Positions 16,957-46,988 of a stretch of 64,000 nt of DNA are shown here, one piece after another. The notes below the pieces were generated by a model. The model was given only the letters and a program-made list of their open reading frames with translations, was not told the origin of the DNA and searched no databases. Source of the stretch: an uncultured Muribaculaceae bacterium. GTDB taxonomy: Bacteria; Bacillota_I; Bacilli_A; RF39; UBA660. How positions within the stretch are numbered: the first letter of the stretch is position 1; each line of letters begins with the position of its first letter. A program made the position numbers and the translations under genes. The stretch spans positions 10,791-74,790 of the forward strand of contig CAYRLX010000001.1 of NCBI GenBank assembly GCA_964425325.1, given 5' to 3'.

Positions 16957-18435
16957 ATGACTAAAGAAGAATATGAAAAAGAACTAAAGCGTATACAAAA
17001 TGCAAGATTTTCTAAAGAAACTAAAGAAAGATTAATAAAAGAATTATCTGATGAATATAATTCAAGAAATGCTGAGAAACCAAAAGAAGGATTAAATAAA
17101 TTGTTATCGAGAGCAATCATAGGAACCATGGATAATCATCCACACGACCACGCTTTAGGAAATGGAATGGCTGTAGCTATATCAAAGTTATATAACGAAC
17201 ATTTATCAAATCTAGAAGCTGCAGAATTATTTTGTAATTATATTTCAGCAAAAAGTTTAAGATTTAATACTAGTTTAAGAGAAGAAGTTTTAAAATATTA
17301 TAGAGAAAATACTGACAGTAACATCATTATAGATATTATTAATCTTTTAAAAGAAAATACTAGAGAAAAAGATAAATTAGTAGATATAATGCATACTGTA
17401 AGTGAAATTATTAGACATAATGAAAAACAGAAAAATAGAACCACAAATGAATTTGAACAAGTTTTGATAATTTATCCTGGATACTTTATAAATAACACAA
17501 ATTATAAATTCTTTAATTTTTTATTTAAAGAATTTAAAGATAACATTGACATAGAAAAATTATTTGATGTTATTTCAAAAGAAGATGACATTGAAATAGA
17601 GGATATAACTAAGACGTGTTATAGTGTATTATCTAATATAGATGGATTTATATTAAGAGACTCTTACTCCGGAACACTTTTAGATGGGAAAATTGATCTA
17701 GCTAGTGATAGAGGATATAGAAGCAAACCATATTGGCCTCAGCAAGATGCTGTAGGAAGTTTAGCATACGATAACAACCACTTTATAAATGTAGTTGCAG
17801 ATGGTGTAGGAGGAACAGATAAAGGTCACGAAGCTAGTTTAGAATTTGTAAAAGAAATACTAAGTTGGTATAGAAATATATCAATTCAAGTTTTAGATGA
17901 TGTAGATAAAATGAGTTTTTTCCTTAACAGCATGGTAAAAGCAATTAACAAAAAGATATTAGATAAATATAATGGAATCGCACAAACAACATATGTTATT
18001 GCACTAACAGCTGGTGATAAAACGATTATATCCAATATAGGTGATTCTACAGCCTACGCATATGACGAGGATAGTGATCAGTTGATAGAACTTACAACCT
18101 TAGATTCATACTCGAATGGTCTAAGTTATGAACAAGCAAGAAACAACCCAAATAATAATGTTATAAAGGAAGACATAGGATATTCATACCAAATTAATCC
18201 ACATATAAATATAATAGAAAATAATGGACAAACTATTATACTATCTAGTGATGGAATAACAGATTTAGCTAGTGAAGAAACATTTAAAAGTTATTTTAGA
18301 GATAATACATCAGCTAGACAAATGGTCGATAATGCAGTATATAATCCAGATGATGCACCACATAAAAGAGAGGATAACGTATCCGCAATAAAAATAAAGC
18401 TTCCAAGTGGAAGAATAAAAAGAAGGGGGCTATAA
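16957..18435 (+). CDS. PP2C-family Ser/Thr protein phosphatase domain with an unknown N-terminal region of about 250 aa
   Basis: The C-terminal half has VADGVGGTDKGHEAS, NIGDSTAYAY and ILSSDGITD, the PP2C/SpoIIE-type metal-binding Asp motifs. Confidence 0.65.
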   Translation: MTKEEYEKELKRIQNARFSKETKERLIKELSDEYNSRNAEKPKEGLNKLLSRAIIGTMDNHPHDHALGNGMAVAISKLYNEHLSNLEAAELFCNYISAKSLRFNTSLREEVLKYYRENTDSNIIIDIINLLKENTREKDKLVDIMHTVSEIIRHNEKQKNRTTNEFEQVLIIYPGYFINNTNYKFFNFLFKEFKDNIDIEKLFDVISKEDDIEIEDITKTCYSVLSNIDGFILRDSYSGTLLDGKIDLASDRGYRSKPYWPQQDAVGSLAYDNNHFINVVADGVGGTDKGHEASLEFVKEILSWYRNISIQVLDDVDKMSFFLNSMVKAINKKILDKYNGIAQTTYVIALTAGDKTIISNIGDSTAYAYDEDSDQLIELTTLDSYSNGLSYEQARNNPNNNVIKEDIGYSYQINPHINIIENNGQTIILSSDGITDLASEETFKSYFRDNTSARQMVDNAVYNPDDAPHKREDNVSAIKIKLPSGRIKRRGL

Positions 18436-34036: not shown

Positions 34037-34444
34037 ATGGAAAAAACTATTATAAAACCAGGTATAGTACTAATAAAAAAAGATGGAATCATATATGAGT
34101 TAGATAAAAAGACACTTCAAACAATTAAAGCAATAGTATTTGATACTGACTGTAATTTATGTAAACTATGTAATAATACAAAGTGTAAGTTATCAAAAAA
34201 AATTGAAGATGAATTTATAACTGATGCATTGACATTGAAAACAAAACCAAATTGTGAATATGTACTTGGATGCGATAATTTTGAACTAAAAGGGCAGTAT
34301 AACGATGCTCCAAGACTAGTATGGTTTAGTACAGATTTTGAAGAAGAAATGAATGATGATGAAATAACAATTAGACATTATAATGAAGCTCATGTTCATC
34401 ACATAGCTCATCCAACTATCGCAAGACATATTGATAAAATATAA
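34037..34444 (+). CDS. small Cys-rich protein (135 aa), family with the 56615 and 56897 gene products
   Basis: DCNLCKLCNNTKC ...KKIEDEFITDA... VLGCDNFE. The same LCxxCxxxxC...(V/I)(L/T)(D/G)C(D/P)(N/D)(F/Y) pattern occurs in the other two. Confidence 0.6.
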   Translation: MEKTIIKPGIVLIKKDGIIYELDKKTLQTIKAIVFDTDCNLCKLCNNTKCKLSKKIEDEFITDALTLKTKPNCEYVLGCDNFELKGQYNDAPRLVWFSTDFEEEMNDDEITIRHYNEAHVHHIAHPTIARHIDKI

Positions 34445-41424: not shown

Positions 41425-43623
41425 ATGGCAAAGAGAAAAAGAAGAAAATCATCTAAAAAAACAGTATCATATAGTATAGAATTAAAAGGAATACTATTAT
41501 TATTAATAGCGATAGTTGGATGCTGTCCATTTGGAATAGCTGCAGATATCATTAAAGGATTTGCAGCCTTTTTAGCAGGCGGATGGTATATAGTTCCACT
41601 AATCGGTTTAGGAGCAGCTGGACTATATATGATAGTAAAAAGAGAAGATCCAGATTATTTGACATCACATTTAATTGGTCTATACTGTTTAATGCTTGGA
41701 ATATTAGTCTTATCCCATACAGAATATATAAATAGTTTTGTAGGAAAAGGCGTAGAAGCAGGAAAAATATTTAATGAAACTATAAACAATATTATGGGAT
41801 TTGTAAAACATACAGGAGAAATAGAAGGCGGCGGAATAATAGGCGCAATATTTTCAGTAATAGGCTATAAACTATTAACATTAGAAGGAACAAAAGTAGT
41901 ATGTGCATTTTTAATAGTATGTGGTCTTATTATGTTTACTGGAGTATCTATTTATGACGCTATAAATACATTAAAAGAAAAATTTAGAACTATAAAAGAA
42001 ACTAAAAATGAAGTAAATGTTAGAAAAGCAGTTAAAGAAGCTGAAGAAGAATACGAAGAAGAAGAGCACAAAAAAGTAATCATTTCTTCTATAGATGAAC
42101 TAGCAACTATAGAGCCTAAGGAAGAAAAAGAAGAAGTAGAAGAAAAGAAAGCACCAAGTATGAATACAAAAGAGTATAGGAAGCCACCTATGAGTTTATT
42201 AAATGCACCTAAGATTAATAAAGAGGCTATTAAAGCTAATCAAGAATCAATTAAAGAAAATGTAAAAGCTATAGAAAAAGTAACAAAAGACTTTGGAGTA
42301 GACGTAAAAGTAGTTGCAGCAAATATCGGCCCATCAGTTACCCAGTATGAACTAGAAGTAAAATCAGGTACTAGACTTTCAAAAATAACAGCCTTAAATA
42401 AAGAAATAGCTTTAGATTTGGGAGCAAAAGATGTCAGAATACAAGCTCCAATCCCAGGCAAAAAAACAGTAGGAATAGAACTGCCTAATAAAACAACAAC
42501 CCCAGTTGCCGTAAGAGAAATACTAAGTGCTTTTAAAAATAAAGAAGATAGTAAATTACTCGCAGCTTTAGGAAAATCTATTATGGGTGAACCTGTGTGC
42601 TGTGAAATTGATAAAACTCCGCACCTTTTAGTAGCTGGATCTACTGGATCAGGTAAATCAGTATGTATCAATAGTATGATTACATCTCTCTTAATGAGAA
42701 CAAAACCAGATGAAGTTAAATTAGTTTTAGTAGACCCTAAAAAAGTAGAACTTTCTATGTATAATGGAGTTCCTCATTTACTAACCCCAGTTGTAACAGA
42801 CCCTAAAAAAGCAAATATCGTACTTCAAAAAATAGTAAAGATGATGGAAGACAGATACGATTTATTTGAAAATAGTAAAACTAAAAATATAGCTGGATAC
42901 AACGCATACGTAGACAAGAAAAACGAAACTTTAGAAGAAGATGAAAAAATAGATAGACTACCATATATAGTAGTTATCATCGATGAGCTTGCCGATTTAA
43001 TGTTAGTTGCCGCAAAAGAAGTAGAAGACTCAATCATGAGAATAACTCAAATGGCAAGAGCTGCTGGAATACATTTAATAGTAGCAACTCAAAGACCATC
43101 TACAGATGTTATTACAGGAGTTGTTAAAGCAAATATTCCATCTAGAATTTCATTTGCCGTATCAAGTAGTATCGATTCAAGAACGATACTTGATATGTCA
43201 GGAGCTGAAAAGCTATTAGGTAAAGGAGACATGCTTTTCTTACCGCAAGGAGAAAACGTTCCAGTCAGAGTACAAGGAACATTTATATCAGATGATGAAA
43301 TAAAAGCAGTTGTCGATTACACTATTTCTCAGCAAAAAGCCATGTATGATAATTCGCTCACCCTATCAGAAGAAGATAAGGGAGCAACCACTATGGTTGA
43401 AAATGATGATGATTATGAAGAACCACTTTATAATGAAATAAGAGAATTTGTAATAACCCAAGGAAAAGCTAGTGCATCACTTCTTCAAAGAAGATTTAGA
43501 CTCGGATATAATAGAGCTGCAAGATGTATAGATCTTTTAGAAGAAAGAGGAATAGTAGGACCTCCAAATGGTTCAAAACCAAGAGAAGTACTTGTAAAAT
43601 TAGAAAAGAAGGAAGACGAATAA
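41425..43623 (+). CDS. ftsK: DNA translocase FtsK/SpoIIIE
   Basis: N-terminal TM helices, a linker, a motor domain with Walker A GSTGSGKS and the DELADL box, and a C-terminal gamma (winged-helix) domain ASASLLQRRFRLGYNRAARCIDLLEERGIVG. Confidence 0.9.
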   Translation: MAKRKRRKSSKKTVSYSIELKGILLLLIAIVGCCPFGIAADIIKGFAAFLAGGWYIVPLIGLGAAGLYMIVKREDPDYLTSHLIGLYCLMLGILVLSHTEYINSFVGKGVEAGKIFNETINNIMGFVKHTGEIEGGGIIGAIFSVIGYKLLTLEGTKVVCAFLIVCGLIMFTGVSIYDAINTLKEKFRTIKETKNEVNVRKAVKEAEEEYEEEEHKKVIISSIDELATIEPKEEKEEVEEKKAPSMNTKEYRKPPMSLLNAPKINKEAIKANQESIKENVKAIEKVTKDFGVDVKVVAANIGPSVTQYELEVKSGTRLSKITALNKEIALDLGAKDVRIQAPIPGKKTVGIELPNKTTTPVAVREILSAFKNKEDSKLLAALGKSIMGEPVCCEIDKTPHLLVAGSTGSGKSVCINSMITSLLMRTKPDEVKLVLVDPKKVELSMYNGVPHLLTPVVTDPKKANIVLQKIVKMMEDRYDLFENSKTKNIAGYNAYVDKKNETLEEDEKIDRLPYIVVIIDELADLMLVAAKEVEDSIMRITQMARAAGIHLIVATQRPSTDVITGVVKANIPSRISFAVSSSIDSRTILDMSGAEKLLGKGDMLFLPQGENVPVRVQGTFISDDEIKAVVDYTISQQKAMYDNSLTLSEEDKGATTMVENDDDYEEPLYNEIREFVITQGKASASLLQRRFRLGYNRAARCIDLLEERGIVGPPNGSKPREVLVKLEKKEDE

Positions 43624-43634
43624 GTCTTCCTTTT
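43611..43634 (+). terminator. Rho-independent terminator after ftsK
   Basis: GGAAGAC / GTCTTCC stem followed by TTTT, spanning the stop codon. Confidence 0.65.
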
Positions 43635-43652
43635 AAAATATAATTCTACTTT

Positions 43653-43659
43653 TGTCGAA
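43653..43659 (+). promoter_or_regulatory. candidate Spo0A box (TGTCGAA) upstream of the spoIIAA-like gene
   Basis: Exact match to the 0A-box core TGNCGAA, about 50 nt upstream of ATG 43709. The motif is short and could occur by chance. Confidence 0.25.
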
Positions 43660-43708
43660 ACTATATAAAAATAAAATATAAACAATTAAAATTATAAATG
43701 GTGATAAA

Positions 43709-44020
43709 ATGTTAGATATAGACATCCATTCAAAATATGGGATTCTTTTCGTAAGACTGTTTGGGAAATTAAATAAACAAACAAGAAGTAAAATGAATAA
43801 AGAAGTAATAAAACTACTAGGAGAAGTAGGAATAAAAAACGTAGTAATAAACATACAAAATATAAAAGAACTAGATGAAATAGGAAAAAAAGAATTAGAA
43901 AAATGCTTTAAAATAACAGATAAATGTCTACTTTGTATAAACCAAAATCAAACTAATATAATAGATAAAATGAAATATATTATAGAAGAAAAAGAAGCAC
44001 TAAACTACATCAAAATATGA
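43709..44020 (+). CDS. spoIIAA: STAS-domain anti-anti-sigma factor (SpoIIAA-like) lacking the phosphorylatable Ser
   Basis: Collinear with B. subtilis SpoIIAA (IDIHSKYGILFVRLFGKLN... versus IDMNVKESVLCIRLTGELD...). The LSFMDSSGLG segment aligns with IKELDEIGKK, so Ser58 is replaced by Glu57 (codon GAA 43877-43879). Confidence 0.65.
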   Translation: MLDIDIHSKYGILFVRLFGKLNKQTRSKMNKEVIKLLGEVGIKNVVINIQNIKELDEIGKKELEKCFKITDKCLLCINQNQTNIIDKMKYIIEEKEALNYIKI

Positions 44021-44030
44021 AGGAGGAAAA

Positions 44031-44672
44031 GTGGAAGAAATAACAAAAATACTAGTAGAAAATGAAAACCTAATATATTCTATAGCAAGTAAGTTTACTA
44101 AATATAAAGATAAAGAAGATCTATTTCAAGCTGGGTGTATTGGAATGATGGAAGCATATAAAAATTTTGATAAAACAAAAGGGACAAAGTTTACAACATA
44201 TGCATATCCTTATATATTTGGAGAAATAAATAAATATGTAAGAGAAGATCATACAATTAAATTAAGTAAGGATATGCAAAAACTAAAAAGTAAAATAGAA
44301 AAAGCAAGAAACATTTTATCTCAAAAACTAATGCATACACCAAGTGTAAAAGAATTAAGTGATTATTTAGAAATAGATGAACATACAATATCCAGTCTAT
44401 TAAATTATAATGATCCCTACAGTATAGATAAGGAAATAGATGAAACATCCATGCATGAAGTAATTCCAGATAAAATAGTAGACTACGATACTTTAATAGC
44501 TTTAAAAACAGAAATTGAATATTTAGAAGAGCCAGAAAGAACAATAATGATTGAAAGATATTATAATGATATAACTCAAACAGAGCTTTCTAAAAGATTA
44601 GGTCTATCACAAGTAGATATTTCGAGAAGAGAAAAAAAAGTACTTACAAAATTAAAGAAAACATTTATTTGA
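44031..44672 (+). CDS. sigF: sporulation-type group-3 sigma factor (SigF-like)
   Basis: GTG start after AAGGAGG. Region 2 DLFQAGCIGMMEAYKNFD...FTTYAYPYIFGEI, region 4 TQTELSKRLGLSQVDISRREKKVL. Synteny: STAS gene upstream, spoVA genes downstream. Confidence 0.7.
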   Translation: MEEITKILVENENLIYSIASKFTKYKDKEDLFQAGCIGMMEAYKNFDKTKGTKFTTYAYPYIFGEINKYVREDHTIKLSKDMQKLKSKIEKARNILSQKLMHTPSVKELSDYLEIDEHTISSLLNYNDPYSIDKEIDETSMHEVIPDKIVDYDTLIALKTEIEYLEEPERTIMIERYYNDITQTELSKRLGLSQVDISRREKKVLTKLKKTFI

Positions 44673-44712
44673 CAACAAATTATCATTAAACTATAATTAT
44701 AGTGGTGATAAT

Positions 44713-45102
44713 ATGAAAGATAAAGGTTATACATTAGTTGAATTACTTGCAGTACTTGTAATACTTGGAGTAATAATAATGATATCAGTTCCAGCAATTA
44801 CAGGAGTTATTAACTCTTCTAAAGAAAAATCATATGATGAACAAGTAAAAATACTAGAAAATGCAGCAAGAACATATATGTCTGAAAATTCAACTCTACT
44901 TCCAGATGAAGGATCACCATTTAATGTAACTATAGATATTTTAAAAGAAAACGGATTGATATCAGATGAAGAAATTAAAAATCCAAACTTTGTTAGCGGA
45001 AGCACAGAAGATAAAAAGAAGAATCAATATTTTGAAGGATGTATAATAGTCACCAACACAAATAATAAATTTACATATATTTATCAAGATGAATGCAATT
45101 AG
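44713..45102 (+). CDS. type IV pilin/pseudopilin-like protein (prepilin N-terminal methylation motif)
   Basis: MKDKGYTLVELLAVLVILGVIIMISVP carries the G/(F,Y)TLxE class III signal. Confidence 0.75.
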   Translation: MKDKGYTLVELLAVLVILGVIIMISVPAITGVINSSKEKSYDEQVKILENAARTYMSENSTLLPDEGSPFNVTIDILKENGLISDEEIKNPNFVSGSTEDKKKNQYFEGCIIVTNTNNKFTYIYQDECN

Positions 45103-45220: not shown

Positions 45221-45661
45221 ATGAAAGAAGATATATATCAAAAAATAGTAGATAAACATACACCAAAAGAAAATGTATTTCAAAATGTACTAATCGCTTT
45301 TATAACAGGAGGAATAATGGGTATAATAGGACAACTTTTAATTGATTTCTATACCTTAAATTATAATATCCCATCAAAAGAAGCTACAGTATGTATGCTA
45401 ATAACATTAATTTTTTCAAGTTCATTGCTAACTTGTTTAGGTTTTTTTGATAGATGGGTAAACTTTTGTAAATGCGGGCTTATTGTTCCAATAACAGGGT
45501 TTGCTCATGCAACAATGAGTGCAGCACTAGAATATAGAAAAGAAGGCCTAGTTACAGGAATAGGGGTAAACATGCTAAAACTATCAGGAGCAGTTATTAT
45601 TTATGGAATAGTAGGAAGTTTTGTATTTAGTCTAATTAGAACGTTGGTGGGACTTGTATGA
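45221..45661 (+). CDS. spoVAC: stage V sporulation protein AC
   Basis: Four-TM protein with VPITGFAHATMSAALEYRKEGLVTGIG, the typical SpoVAC motif. Confidence 0.85.
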   Translation: MKEDIYQKIVDKHTPKENVFQNVLIAFITGGIMGIIGQLLIDFYTLNYNIPSKEATVCMLITLIFSSSLLTCLGFFDRWVNFCKCGLIVPITGFAHATMSAALEYRKEGLVTGIGVNMLKLSGAVIIYGIVGSFVFSLIRTLVGLV

Positions 45662-46641
45662 CAATAAAATATAATGATGTATATATTAATAGCGCTGCAA
45701 CAGTAACAGGGCCTTATGAAGGAAAGGGACCTTTAAAAAAATATTTTGATAAATCATATGAAAATTTATATTTTGATGAAAAAACTTGGGAACAAGCTGA
45801 AGAAAAAATAATAAATGAATCTATCGGTATAGCAAAAGAAAAAGCAAATAAAGAAAAAATAGATTTATATATTGGAGGTGACCTCTTAAATCAAATCGTA
45901 GCTTCAAACTATGCCGCAGCTGAATTAAACGAAAGCTTTATTGGCATCTATGCAGCTTGCTCAACTAGTACCTTAGGTCTAATATTAGGGGCAAACTTCA
46001 TAGAAAATAAATTAGTTAAAAACGTAATAACATTCACATCTTCACATAATAACGCAGCAGAAAAACAATATAGATATCCAGTAGAATACGGTGGACCAAA
46101 ACCTAAAACAACAACATTCACATCAACTGGAGCCGCATCAGCACTATTATCAAGAGATAAAAAAGGAATAAAAATAGAATCAGGAACTATTGGAAAAGTA
46201 GTAGATTCAAATTCTACTAACATATTTCATATGGGAGCAGTTATGGCAAAAGCTGCAGCAGATACAATAAATAAACATTTGCTAGATACAAAAAGAAACA
46301 TAGACTATTACGATTTAGTACTTACTGGAGATTTAGGTATATATGGAAAAGAAATATTAAAAGATTATTTAAAAGAAAAATACAATATCAGATTAAAAAA
46401 CTATAACGATACAGGCACCATGCTTTATGATACAAATAATCAGCCAGTATATGCTGGTGCCTCAGGTCCAGCATGTGCACCACTAGTAACATATGGCTAT
46501 ATATTTGATCAAATGAAAAAAGGAAAATATAAAAAGGTTTTATTAGTTGCAACAGGCGCTTTAATGAGTCCAACTATGACAAATCAAAAACTAACAATAC
46601 CAGCTATTGCTCATGCTGTTAGCTTGGAGGTGACATTATGA
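45658..46641 (+). CDS. spoVAD: stage V sporulation protein AD
   Basis: Thiolase-like fold with IYAACSTS. About 330 aa. ATGA overlap with spoVAC. Confidence 0.85.
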   Translation: MTIKYNDVYINSAATVTGPYEGKGPLKKYFDKSYENLYFDEKTWEQAEEKIINESIGIAKEKANKEKIDLYIGGDLLNQIVASNYAAAELNESFIGIYAACSTSTLGLILGANFIENKLVKNVITFTSSHNNAAEKQYRYPVEYGGPKPKTTTFTSTGAASALLSRDKKGIKIESGTIGKVVDSNSTNIFHMGAVMAKAAADTINKHLLDTKRNIDYYDLVLTGDLGIYGKEILKDYLKEKYNIRLKNYNDTGTMLYDTNNQPVYAGASGPACAPLVTYGYIFDQMKKGKYKKVLLVATGALMSPTMTNQKLTIPAIAHAVSLEVTL

Positions 46642-46988
46642 TATATATAAATGCATTTATATTCTGTGGCTTAGTATGTGCACTTGGACAAATAATATTA
46701 GATAGTACTAATCTAACTCCAGGGCATATTACAGTAATGTTTGTAACAATAGGAACATTCTTAGATGTATTTAACATATATGATAAAATCGTATTGTGGG
46801 CAGGTGGAGGAGCGCTTGTTCCAATTACAAGCTTTGGACATATGTTAACCCATGGGGCAATAACAGGATACAACGAAGGTGGAATACTAGGTTTGTTTAC
46901 AGGAACACTAAACTTAACTTCAGCAGGTATATCAGCAGCCATTATATTCGCTTTCTTCCTATCACTTATATTTGAACCTCAAGATTGA
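46638..46988 (+). CDS. spoVAE: stage V sporulation protein AE (AEB type)
   Basis: 116-aa membrane protein with GGGALVPITSFGH, paralogous to SpoVAC. Confidence 0.8.
   Translation: MIYINAFIFCGLVCALGQIILDSTNLTPGHITVMFVTIGTFLDVFNIYDKIVLWAGGGALVPITSFGHMLTHGAITGYNEGGILGLFTGTLNLTSAGISAAIIFAFFLSLIFEPQD

Follow-up and report, generated by a model that had tools for sequence, protein, structure and literature searches.

The 64,000-nucleotide stretch analysed here, hereafter the window, comes from the genome of an uncultured bacterium deposited as Muribaculaceae and placed by GTDB in Bacilli_A, RF39, UBA660 (assembly GCA_964425325.1, contig CAYRLX010000001.1, positions 10,791 to 74,790 of the forward strand). 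It contains a compact operon in which a gene for a STAS-domain protein of 103 residues is followed, after a 10-nt spacer, by a sigma factor gene of 213 codons that starts with GTG; both open reading frames (ORFs) were confirmed. The preliminary description had identified this as a spoIIA-type locus from which spoIIAB, the gene for the anti-sigma factor and kinase, is missing, and both points are upheld by the searches of the genome and its relatives described below. The elements of the operon, in window coordinates, are as follows.

43651–43660, plus strand: Spo0A-box-like element TTTGTCGAAA, with the core TGTCGAA at 43653–43659, recognised by its conservation among orthologous loci.
43687–43692, plus strand: putative −10 element TAAAAT, 27 nt 3′ of the box, placed by aligning upstream regions by eye.
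43709–44020, plus strand: gene for the SpoIIAA orthologue, 103 residues, of STAS fold and without a phospho-acceptor (Pfam, profile, model and dN/dS).
43877–43879, plus strand: GAA codon for Glu57, at the position homologous to Ser58 of SpoIIAA (profile alignment and model).
44021–44026, plus strand: AGGAGG, the ribosome-binding site of sigF, beginning directly after the STAS stop codon.
44031–44672, plus strand: gene for a SigF-type sporulation sigma factor, 213 residues, with regions 2, 3 and 4 (NCBIfam/Pfam and synteny).

The SpoIIAA/SpoIIAB/SpoIIE switch is the textbook mechanism by which the first cell-specific sigma factor of endospore formation is activated. The genome to which the window belongs (987 kb, 27% GC, 25 contigs, rated 90% complete) was searched for spoIIAB/rsbW-type genes and for spoIIE, as the preliminary description had proposed, and neither a SpoIIAB/RsbW-type kinase nor a SpoIIE/RsbU-type PP2C phosphatase was found in it. 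The Pfam HATPase_c_2 model, used for SpoIIAB, and the Pfam SpoIIE model gave no match in the genome, and the sole match there to the SpoIIAB model TIGR01925 is the ATPase domain of a 400-residue membrane histidine kinase. Custom hidden Markov models (HMMs) built from nine SpoIIAB and four SpoIIE sequences of same-class relatives were then run unfiltered on 11,035 six-frame segments; over all of these the SpoIIAB model recovered only the histidine kinase again (E = 2.5e-5), and the SpoIIE model had no match. The genome holds one STAS gene only, and a canonical spoIIAB accompanied by a second, serine-containing spoIIAA, which would have made the pair in the window a different STAS and sigma paralogue, was looked for elsewhere in the genome and not encountered.

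The absence extends well beyond this genome. No SpoIIAB of about 150 residues and no SpoIIE were found in 36 other genomes of the genus, the single-contig genomes G009 and G012 included, and a search of 151 genomes from 86 genera of the order, each at least 90% complete, turned up no small SpoIIAB. Same-class spore-formers, among them one with a genome of 0.9 Mb (G042), carry spoIIAA (with the motif FMDSSG)–spoIIAB–sigF–spoVAC–spoVAD together with a SpoIIE of ~700–780 residues, and the searches thus detect these genes where they exist. Other known regulators of the anti-sigma type are missing as well: neither Fin nor Gin/CsfB was found in the nine genomes of the genus that were searched.

Two further proteins of the window were considered. 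The only PP2C protein seen, of 492 residues, is encoded at 16957–18435, with a C-terminal PP2C_2 domain (E = 3e-14) and a helical N-terminal region of ~250 residues. It was rejected as a replacement for SpoIIE, being of the PP2C_2 type, failing to match the SpoIIE model and having no phosphorylatable STAS substrate. A protein with four cysteines encoded at 34037 has no Pfam match.

Comparison with the same-class relatives reveals how the operon came to be. The STAS and sigma factor genes of the window are orthologous to those of the relatives' spoIIAA–spoIIAB–sigF–spoVAC–spoVAD operons. The SpoIIAA of G042 begins MDIDMEFRKGILFVRIRGELD, which is close to the STAS family seen here, and this resemblance indicates that the STAS genes are direct orthologues of spoIIAA from whose operon spoIIAB has been excised. 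The comparison shows that the operon derives from spoIIAA–spoIIAB–sigF–spoVA, spoIIAB having been cleanly removed. With the ribosome-binding site of sigF abutting the STAS stop codon, the layout also shows the two remaining genes to be, as far as can be predicted, translationally coupled. The spacing is retained by the relatives that lack spoIIAB: the gap between STAS and sigF is at most 12 nt, or the genes overlap, in the loci of the genus and in 27 of 29 order-wide loci (28 from other genera and one from this genus).

Conservation of the pair is extensive. A STAS homologue is present in 34 of the 36 genus genomes, and the order STAS–sigF–pilin–(spoVAC) occurs in all 30 genus loci fetched, with nothing between STAS and sigF. 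Among the 29 order-wide loci, 27 have STAS directly followed by sigF and mostly then by spoVAC–spoVAD. The STAS profile matches 113 of the 151 order genomes (67 of 86 genera), SpoIIR being matched in 130, and in a library of 1.84 billion representatives it finds 236 clusters at E ≤ 1e-10.

Taken singly, the STAS protein of the window is a distant member of its family. It scores 19.5 bits with Pfam STAS, below the cut-off of 22.6 (E = 9e-4), and 21.2 bits with the SpoIIAA model TIGR02886 (E = 2e-4), for which the equivalog cut-off of 114.75 is not reached. All 28 aligned orthologues, the window protein included, match Pfam STAS at E ≤ 0.01, and the profile built from these 28 sequences matches the SpoIIAA structures 1TH8, 1TID and 1AUZ, from Geobacillus and B. 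subtilis, with E ~5e-15. The AlphaFold model of the protein (pLDDT 91.2, pTM 0.83) has a STAS fold, with a predicted order of strand–strand–helix–strand–helix–strand–helix, and its best matches in the PDB are SpoIIAA chains taken from SpoIIAB complexes (TM 0.79–0.83 to 1TH8_B and 1THN_B). In its fold and in its place as first gene of the sigF operon the protein is thus a SpoIIAA; in its equivalog score and in the phospho-serine it departs from that family. The dN/dS ratio of the STAS gene is 0.07–0.18 (Nei–Gojobori, pairs with dS of 0.5–1.1), and by the same method sigF gives 0.08–0.15 and the neighbouring pilin gene 0.07–0.38. On these estimates purifying selection acts on the STAS gene about as strongly as on sigF, and the gene is not decaying. 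Simple degeneration of the partner-switching module, which the preliminary description had entertained, finds no support here.

Five sigma factor genes are present in the genome. The product of the one in the window is matched by Pfam sigma-70 regions 2, 3 and 4, and the NCBIfam models that fit it best are SigB/F/G (172 bits) and spore_sigF (TIGR02885; 163 bits against 321), both matches falling below the cut-off. The other four genes encode SigA, SigE (313 bits), SigG (347 bits) and SigK (309 bits), which leaves the gene in the window as SigF. It is separate from the genes for SigG, SigE and SigK, and it is syntenic with spoIIAA and spoVA, as in the canonical operons of relatives. Of the four sporulation sigma factors SigF has diverged furthest, with 163 bits as against 295–347 for SigG, SigE and SigK on their own models. 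Its shortened N-terminus was considered as a lineage-specific trait and the idea dropped, the proteins of same-class relatives that have SpoIIAB being short as well, at 197–223 residues.

The sporulation core around SigF is present. The genome encodes Spo0A (270 bits, above the cut-off), SpoIIR, SpoIIGA (directly 5′ of sigE), SpoIVA and SpoIIP, and in addition an α/β-type small acid-soluble spore protein (SASP) and SpoVAC/D/E; there is no SigH gene in the genome. The presence of spoIIR, spoIIGA, pro-sigma-E and sigG together shows the logic downstream of sigma-F to be intact, at least in predicted gene content. The upstream regions of spoIIR in two species share TGTATA, a gap of 17 or 18 nt and CATTATTA (C5, start 43896, minus strand; L057, upstream of 1414), and a similar block, GTTTA, 17 nt and CATTACTA, lies upstream of sigG (C10, 26699). 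These blocks resemble forespore-type (sigma-F/G) promoters, and the logic of the regulon seems to be retained.

Residue 57 is where the phosphorylation site of SpoIIAA would be expected. The profile alignment has no gap across the phosphorylation loop, where D56-E57-I58-G59 fall opposite D-S58-S-G of SpoIIAA, and in the AlphaFold model residue 57 opens helix α2 at its N-terminus. Alignment and model together confirm the earlier assignment of Glu57 to the position of Ser58. The suggestion that this Glu is a constitutive phosphomimetic residue does not hold, since position 57 is hypervariable both in 58 orthologous loci (12 Lys, 9 Glu, 8 Asp, 5 each of Asn, Ile and Leu, 4 Met, 3 Ser, 2 Arg and five more residues once each) and in 138 database representatives (21 Glu, 19 Lys, 16 Leu, 15 Ile, 13 Ser, 9 Met, 8 each of Asp and Asn, and others). 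Glu is not conserved among the homologues. It is one of many tolerated residues at a site that is no longer constrained, in keeping with the hypervariability of the column. Ser or Thr is found in 4 of the 58 orthologues and 16 of the 138 representatives (about 7–12%), the frequency that an unconstrained surface position would give. The flanking residues behave differently: Asp56 and Gly59 are invariant in all 58 orthologues, and the D..G motif is lost in some of the database representatives. The column shows an acceptor position that drifts freely, so that Glu stands there in this genome by chance. Loss of the kinase and phosphatase would be expected to leave such a pattern, which speaks against a selected acidic mimic.

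In the absence of a SpoIIAB kinase, of a SpoIIE phosphatase and of a conserved phospho-serine, the textbook SpoIIAA/SpoIIAB/SpoIIE forespore switch cannot, on predicted gene content, work as described in this genome and order. The preliminary description had raised the possibility that sigma-F is controlled differently in this lineage, and the missing spoIIAB and the replaced phospho-serine bear it out.

The promoter of the operon has been conserved along with its genes. The TGTCGAA at 43653, noted earlier as resembling a Spo0A box, stands up to phylogenetic footprinting: it is contained in a promoter block, (C)TAGTTTTGTCGAA, kept at a fixed distance of ~55 nt from the start codon; CTAGTTTTGTCGAA is a conserved block. 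The core is exact and at the same distance in 24 of 30 genus loci, the remaining 6 being one base off; outside the genus, 25 of 28 loci have an exact copy. At the place of the window's TAAAAT, the same 27 nt from the box, orthologues conserve an extended −10 element, TGnTAAAGT or TGnTAAATT. No sigma-70 promoter matching at 9 of 12 positions (an ordinary −35/−10 pair) was found between 43633 and 43708, as expected for an activator-dependent promoter. With 16 copies in the genome where 14 would be expected, the 8-mer TTGTCGAA shows no enrichment, so that the case for the 0A box rests on conservation and not on frequency. The core being conserved in orthologous promoters and Spo0A being encoded, the STAS–sigF promoter fits a Spo0A-activated promoter, to which Spo0A would bind; it must be of the sigma-A type because a SigH gene is lacking.

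Outside the window, intergenic copies of TTTGTCGAAA also occur just 5′ of spo0A (G000, C16:~6139) and, as a tandem pair, beside the gene of the 400-residue polytopic histidine kinase that was the sole SpoIIAB-like match (C3:~41744). Their positions suggest a possible autoregulatory loop of Spo0A with the kinase.

In part of the order the STAS gene itself has disappeared. SpoIIR is present and STAS is not detectable with the profile in ~20 of the 151 order genomes, of which five were inspected. In three (G097, G152 and G088) sigF lies directly after the secreted protein of 300–460 residues found elsewhere in front of the STAS gene; in G133 it is preceded by 380 nt of spacer in which nothing of the STAS gene is left; and in G126 a very divergent STAS-like ORF is left (E = 3e-11 to the family HMM), without the D..G motif. 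Pfam STAS gave no match in any of these five genomes, and all five keep the promoter box before sigF, which thus precedes sigF also where the STAS gene is deleted. The dN/dS of sigF between G088 and G152 is roughly 0.2, with dS saturated. The comparison shows that at least three sister genera have deleted the STAS gene and kept the promoter, sigF, spoIIR and spoVA. The order as a whole shows a stepwise series, in which SpoIIAB and SpoIIE have been lost throughout as sampled, the acceptor site was then freed and the STAS gene was last to go, in at least three genera.

Some features of individual loci may be added. The secreted or membrane-anchored protein of 300–460 residues evolves fast and is the usual 5′ neighbour of STAS–sigF in many genera (L093:160–1428, L096:2221–3129 and L097:1438–2568, with ORFs in L064, L073, L082, L084 and others); with the STAS gene gone, sigF is its immediate neighbour. 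In G082 (L070) the STAS gene is not followed by sigF, and that genome also has no SpoIIR; in G084 (L074) the sigF ORF is truncated to 135 residues. These two may be lineages that are losing sporulation.

The surroundings of the operon in the window are as follows.

41425–43623: an ftsK/spoIIIE-family gene, the upstream neighbour, identified as an ORF.
43609–43632, plus strand: terminator-type hairpin that ends the ftsK/spoIIIE-family gene, a palindrome found by terminator scan.
44713–45102, plus strand: prepilin-type gene, found between sigF and spoVAC in this genus only.
45221–46988, plus strand: spoVAC–spoVAD–spoVAE, which lie directly 3′ of sigF in other genera and in canonical relatives.

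The hairpin keeps the ftsK/spoIIIE-family gene apart from the STAS–sigF promoter. The prepilin-type gene has a sigma-70 promoter of its own, perfect at 12 of 12 positions (44669–44697), that overlaps the sigF stop codon. Kept in 30 of 30 genus loci and missing from this place in most other genera, the gene looks like a genus-specific insertion that is independently expressed.

Overall, we consider it somewhat more likely than not that an uncultured, genome-reduced lineage of Bacilli has here its sigma-F operon without a phosphorylation switch, in which the STAS protein has become a non-enzymatic binding partner. Sigma-F would then be controlled mainly through Spo0A-dependent transcription together with a route that does not involve phosphorylation, and the STAS protein, as a stoichiometric partner, would tune its activity, in a role that may be helpful and not indispensable. 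Direct binding of the STAS protein to sigma-F is our preferred guess at how it does so, put forward with low confidence. The chromosomal position of the operon may also matter. In two closed genomes it lies ~90% of the way from dnaA to the point opposite on the chromosome. G012 (1337 kb) has dnaA at 141 kb and the locus at 863 kb; in G009 (about 1.5 Mb) dnaA is at 1388 kb and the locus at 559 kb. The spoIIA operon of B. subtilis is likewise origin-distal, and its position contributes to forespore-specific activation of sigma-F via transient genetic asymmetry. Transient exclusion of the terminus-proximal operon from the forespore could, in the same way, supply the compartment bias that phosphorylation gives in Bacillus. 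A fuller version, which we regard as speculative and rather unlikely, has the STAS protein turned, after the loss of SpoIIAB, into a kinase-independent holder or anti-sigma factor of sigma-F, made in a 1:1 ratio by translational coupling and relieved in the forespore by exclusion of the operon and turnover. If such a holder were true, two proteins would provide a minimal route to compartment-specific transcription.

Several points weigh against a sigma-F operon in which the STAS protein has become the binding partner. In a mirror-tree comparison the STAS and sigF trees correlate with r = 0.77 and a partial r of 0.60, and the partial correlation of STAS with the pilin is 0.51, so that the signal is not specific to sigF. 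Some genera have deleted the STAS gene, so that sigma-F can evidently do without it, which weakens an essential anti-sigma role. Whether these bacteria sporulate is predicted both ways by surveys. Finally, an anti-sigma factor of non-homologous type would escape homology searches and may yet be present. The STAS protein could in that case still be an anti-anti-sigma factor, set against an unrecognised anti-sigma-F that is not SpoIIAB-like and switched by a ligand, by redox state or by proteolysis. This is a possible, if minority, explanation. The Asp and Gly that frame the SpoIIAB-contact loop, invariant in 58 of 58 orthologues, suggest that the old interaction surface remains in use; purifying selection acts on the STAS gene; and mycobacterial RsfA offers a precedent for a STAS antagonist that cannot be phosphorylated, the related UsfX–RsfB complex 8IH8 having been returned by the fold search. 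Set against these are the failure to find a small GHKL-type protein in the 151 order genomes, the absence of Fin and Gin from the nine genus genomes and the lack of any other gene conserved in the operon across genera. Moreover, in genera where the STAS gene has been deleted, nothing would remain to oppose the anti-sigma factor.

Those same deletions speak for supposing that the STAS protein has no role in sigma-F control at all, being a slowly dying relic or a recruit to some unrelated job, with sigma-F regulated by transcription alone. At least three genera have cleanly lost the gene and keep sigF, spoIIR, spoVA and the 0A-box promoter, the protein is very divergent in another genus (L095), and the D..G motif is lost in some database members. 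We nevertheless find this improbable: the gene's dN/dS of 0.07–0.18 is comparable to that of sigF, it is kept in 113 of 151 genomes and 67 of 86 genera, it is tightly coupled to sigF wherever both are seen, and the model gives a confident, intact STAS fold. Far less credit is due to Glu57 as a selected phosphomimic that locks the STAS protein permanently in the 'phosphorylated' state. Glu does stand at the position of Ser58 in this genome, and Glu or Asp in 17 of the 58 orthologues, but Lys is the commonest residue in those loci, many sequences have Leu, Ile, Met, Asn, Tyr or Arg instead, and neither a kinase nor an anti-sigma partner is there to give a phospho-state any consequence. It is just as hard to credit that spoIIAB, spoIIE and a canonical spoIIAA lie in the unassembled 10% of the genome, or that the pair is a SigB-type stress module. 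The assembly of 25 contigs is indeed 90% complete, and the sigma factor does fall below the SigF equivalog cut-off; the same absence is seen, however, in two single-contig genomes of the genus and in the 151 genomes at least 90% complete, the remaining four sigma genes are SigA, SigE, SigG and SigK, and synteny with spoVA and with the canonical operons of relatives is preserved.

Part of this picture was already known. According to the gene-content table of a survey of Bacilli, spoIIAB and spoIIE are reduced or absent in RF39, and spoIIGA, spoIIP and others are present; the survey predicts that RF39 sporulates 'with a markedly different regulation' (PMC10868615, Microb Genom 2024). The gene content of the present genome matches this published description. 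As a presence/absence table, the survey's listing is silent on the retained STAS gene, its phosphosite, selection, the promoter and the secondary loss of STAS (PMC10868615). A machine-learning survey gives RF39 genomes a sporulation probability of 0% and counts spoIIAB among those genes that every predicted spore-former has (PMC12536801). New here are the statistics of the position-57 column, by which a phosphomimic is ruled out, the estimates of selection, the promoter block found across the family, the secondary STAS deletions, the absence of Fin and Gin and the terminus-proximal position.

The significance of the locus lies in what a very large clade of uncultured gut and rumen bacteria, with genomes of ~0.8–1.5 Mb, has given up and what it has retained. 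Both enzymes of the sigma-F switch are missing, and the genes for the sigma cascade, engulfment, coat, SASP and dipicolinate channel are kept. Genomes of this size hold Spo0A, four sporulation sigma factors, SpoIIGA, SpoIIR, SpoIIP, SpoIVA, SASP and SpoVAC/D/E; if the sporulation genes are functional, they would be among the smallest genomes of spore-formers. If these bacteria sporulate, the control of sigma-F can be simpler, and the minimal sporulation gene set smaller. If they do not, the order records an ordered dismantling, with kinase and phosphatase lost first, then the phosphosite and then the STAS gene. The finding also matters for prediction tools that infer sporulation from markers such as spoIIAB.

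Two known systems invite comparison. Mycobacterial RsfA is a non-phosphorylatable STAS antagonist that acts on UsfX, and the STAS protein described here resembles it: both are of the anti-anti-sigma type, and serine phosphorylation is not their switch. The target of RsfA is an anti-sigma factor of GHKL fold, a partner that this genome does not encode. The spoIIA system of Bacillus, Geobacillus and Clostridia differs from the present one in having SpoIIAB and SpoIIE, a conserved acceptor serine, SigH and a SigF that is not so diverged. What the two share is nevertheless considerable: an orthologous STAS gene and sigma factor gene, arranged alike and with spoVA after them; a Spo0A box upstream; spoIIR, spoIIGA, pro-sigma-E and sigG; and, with B. 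subtilis in particular, a locus close to the terminus.

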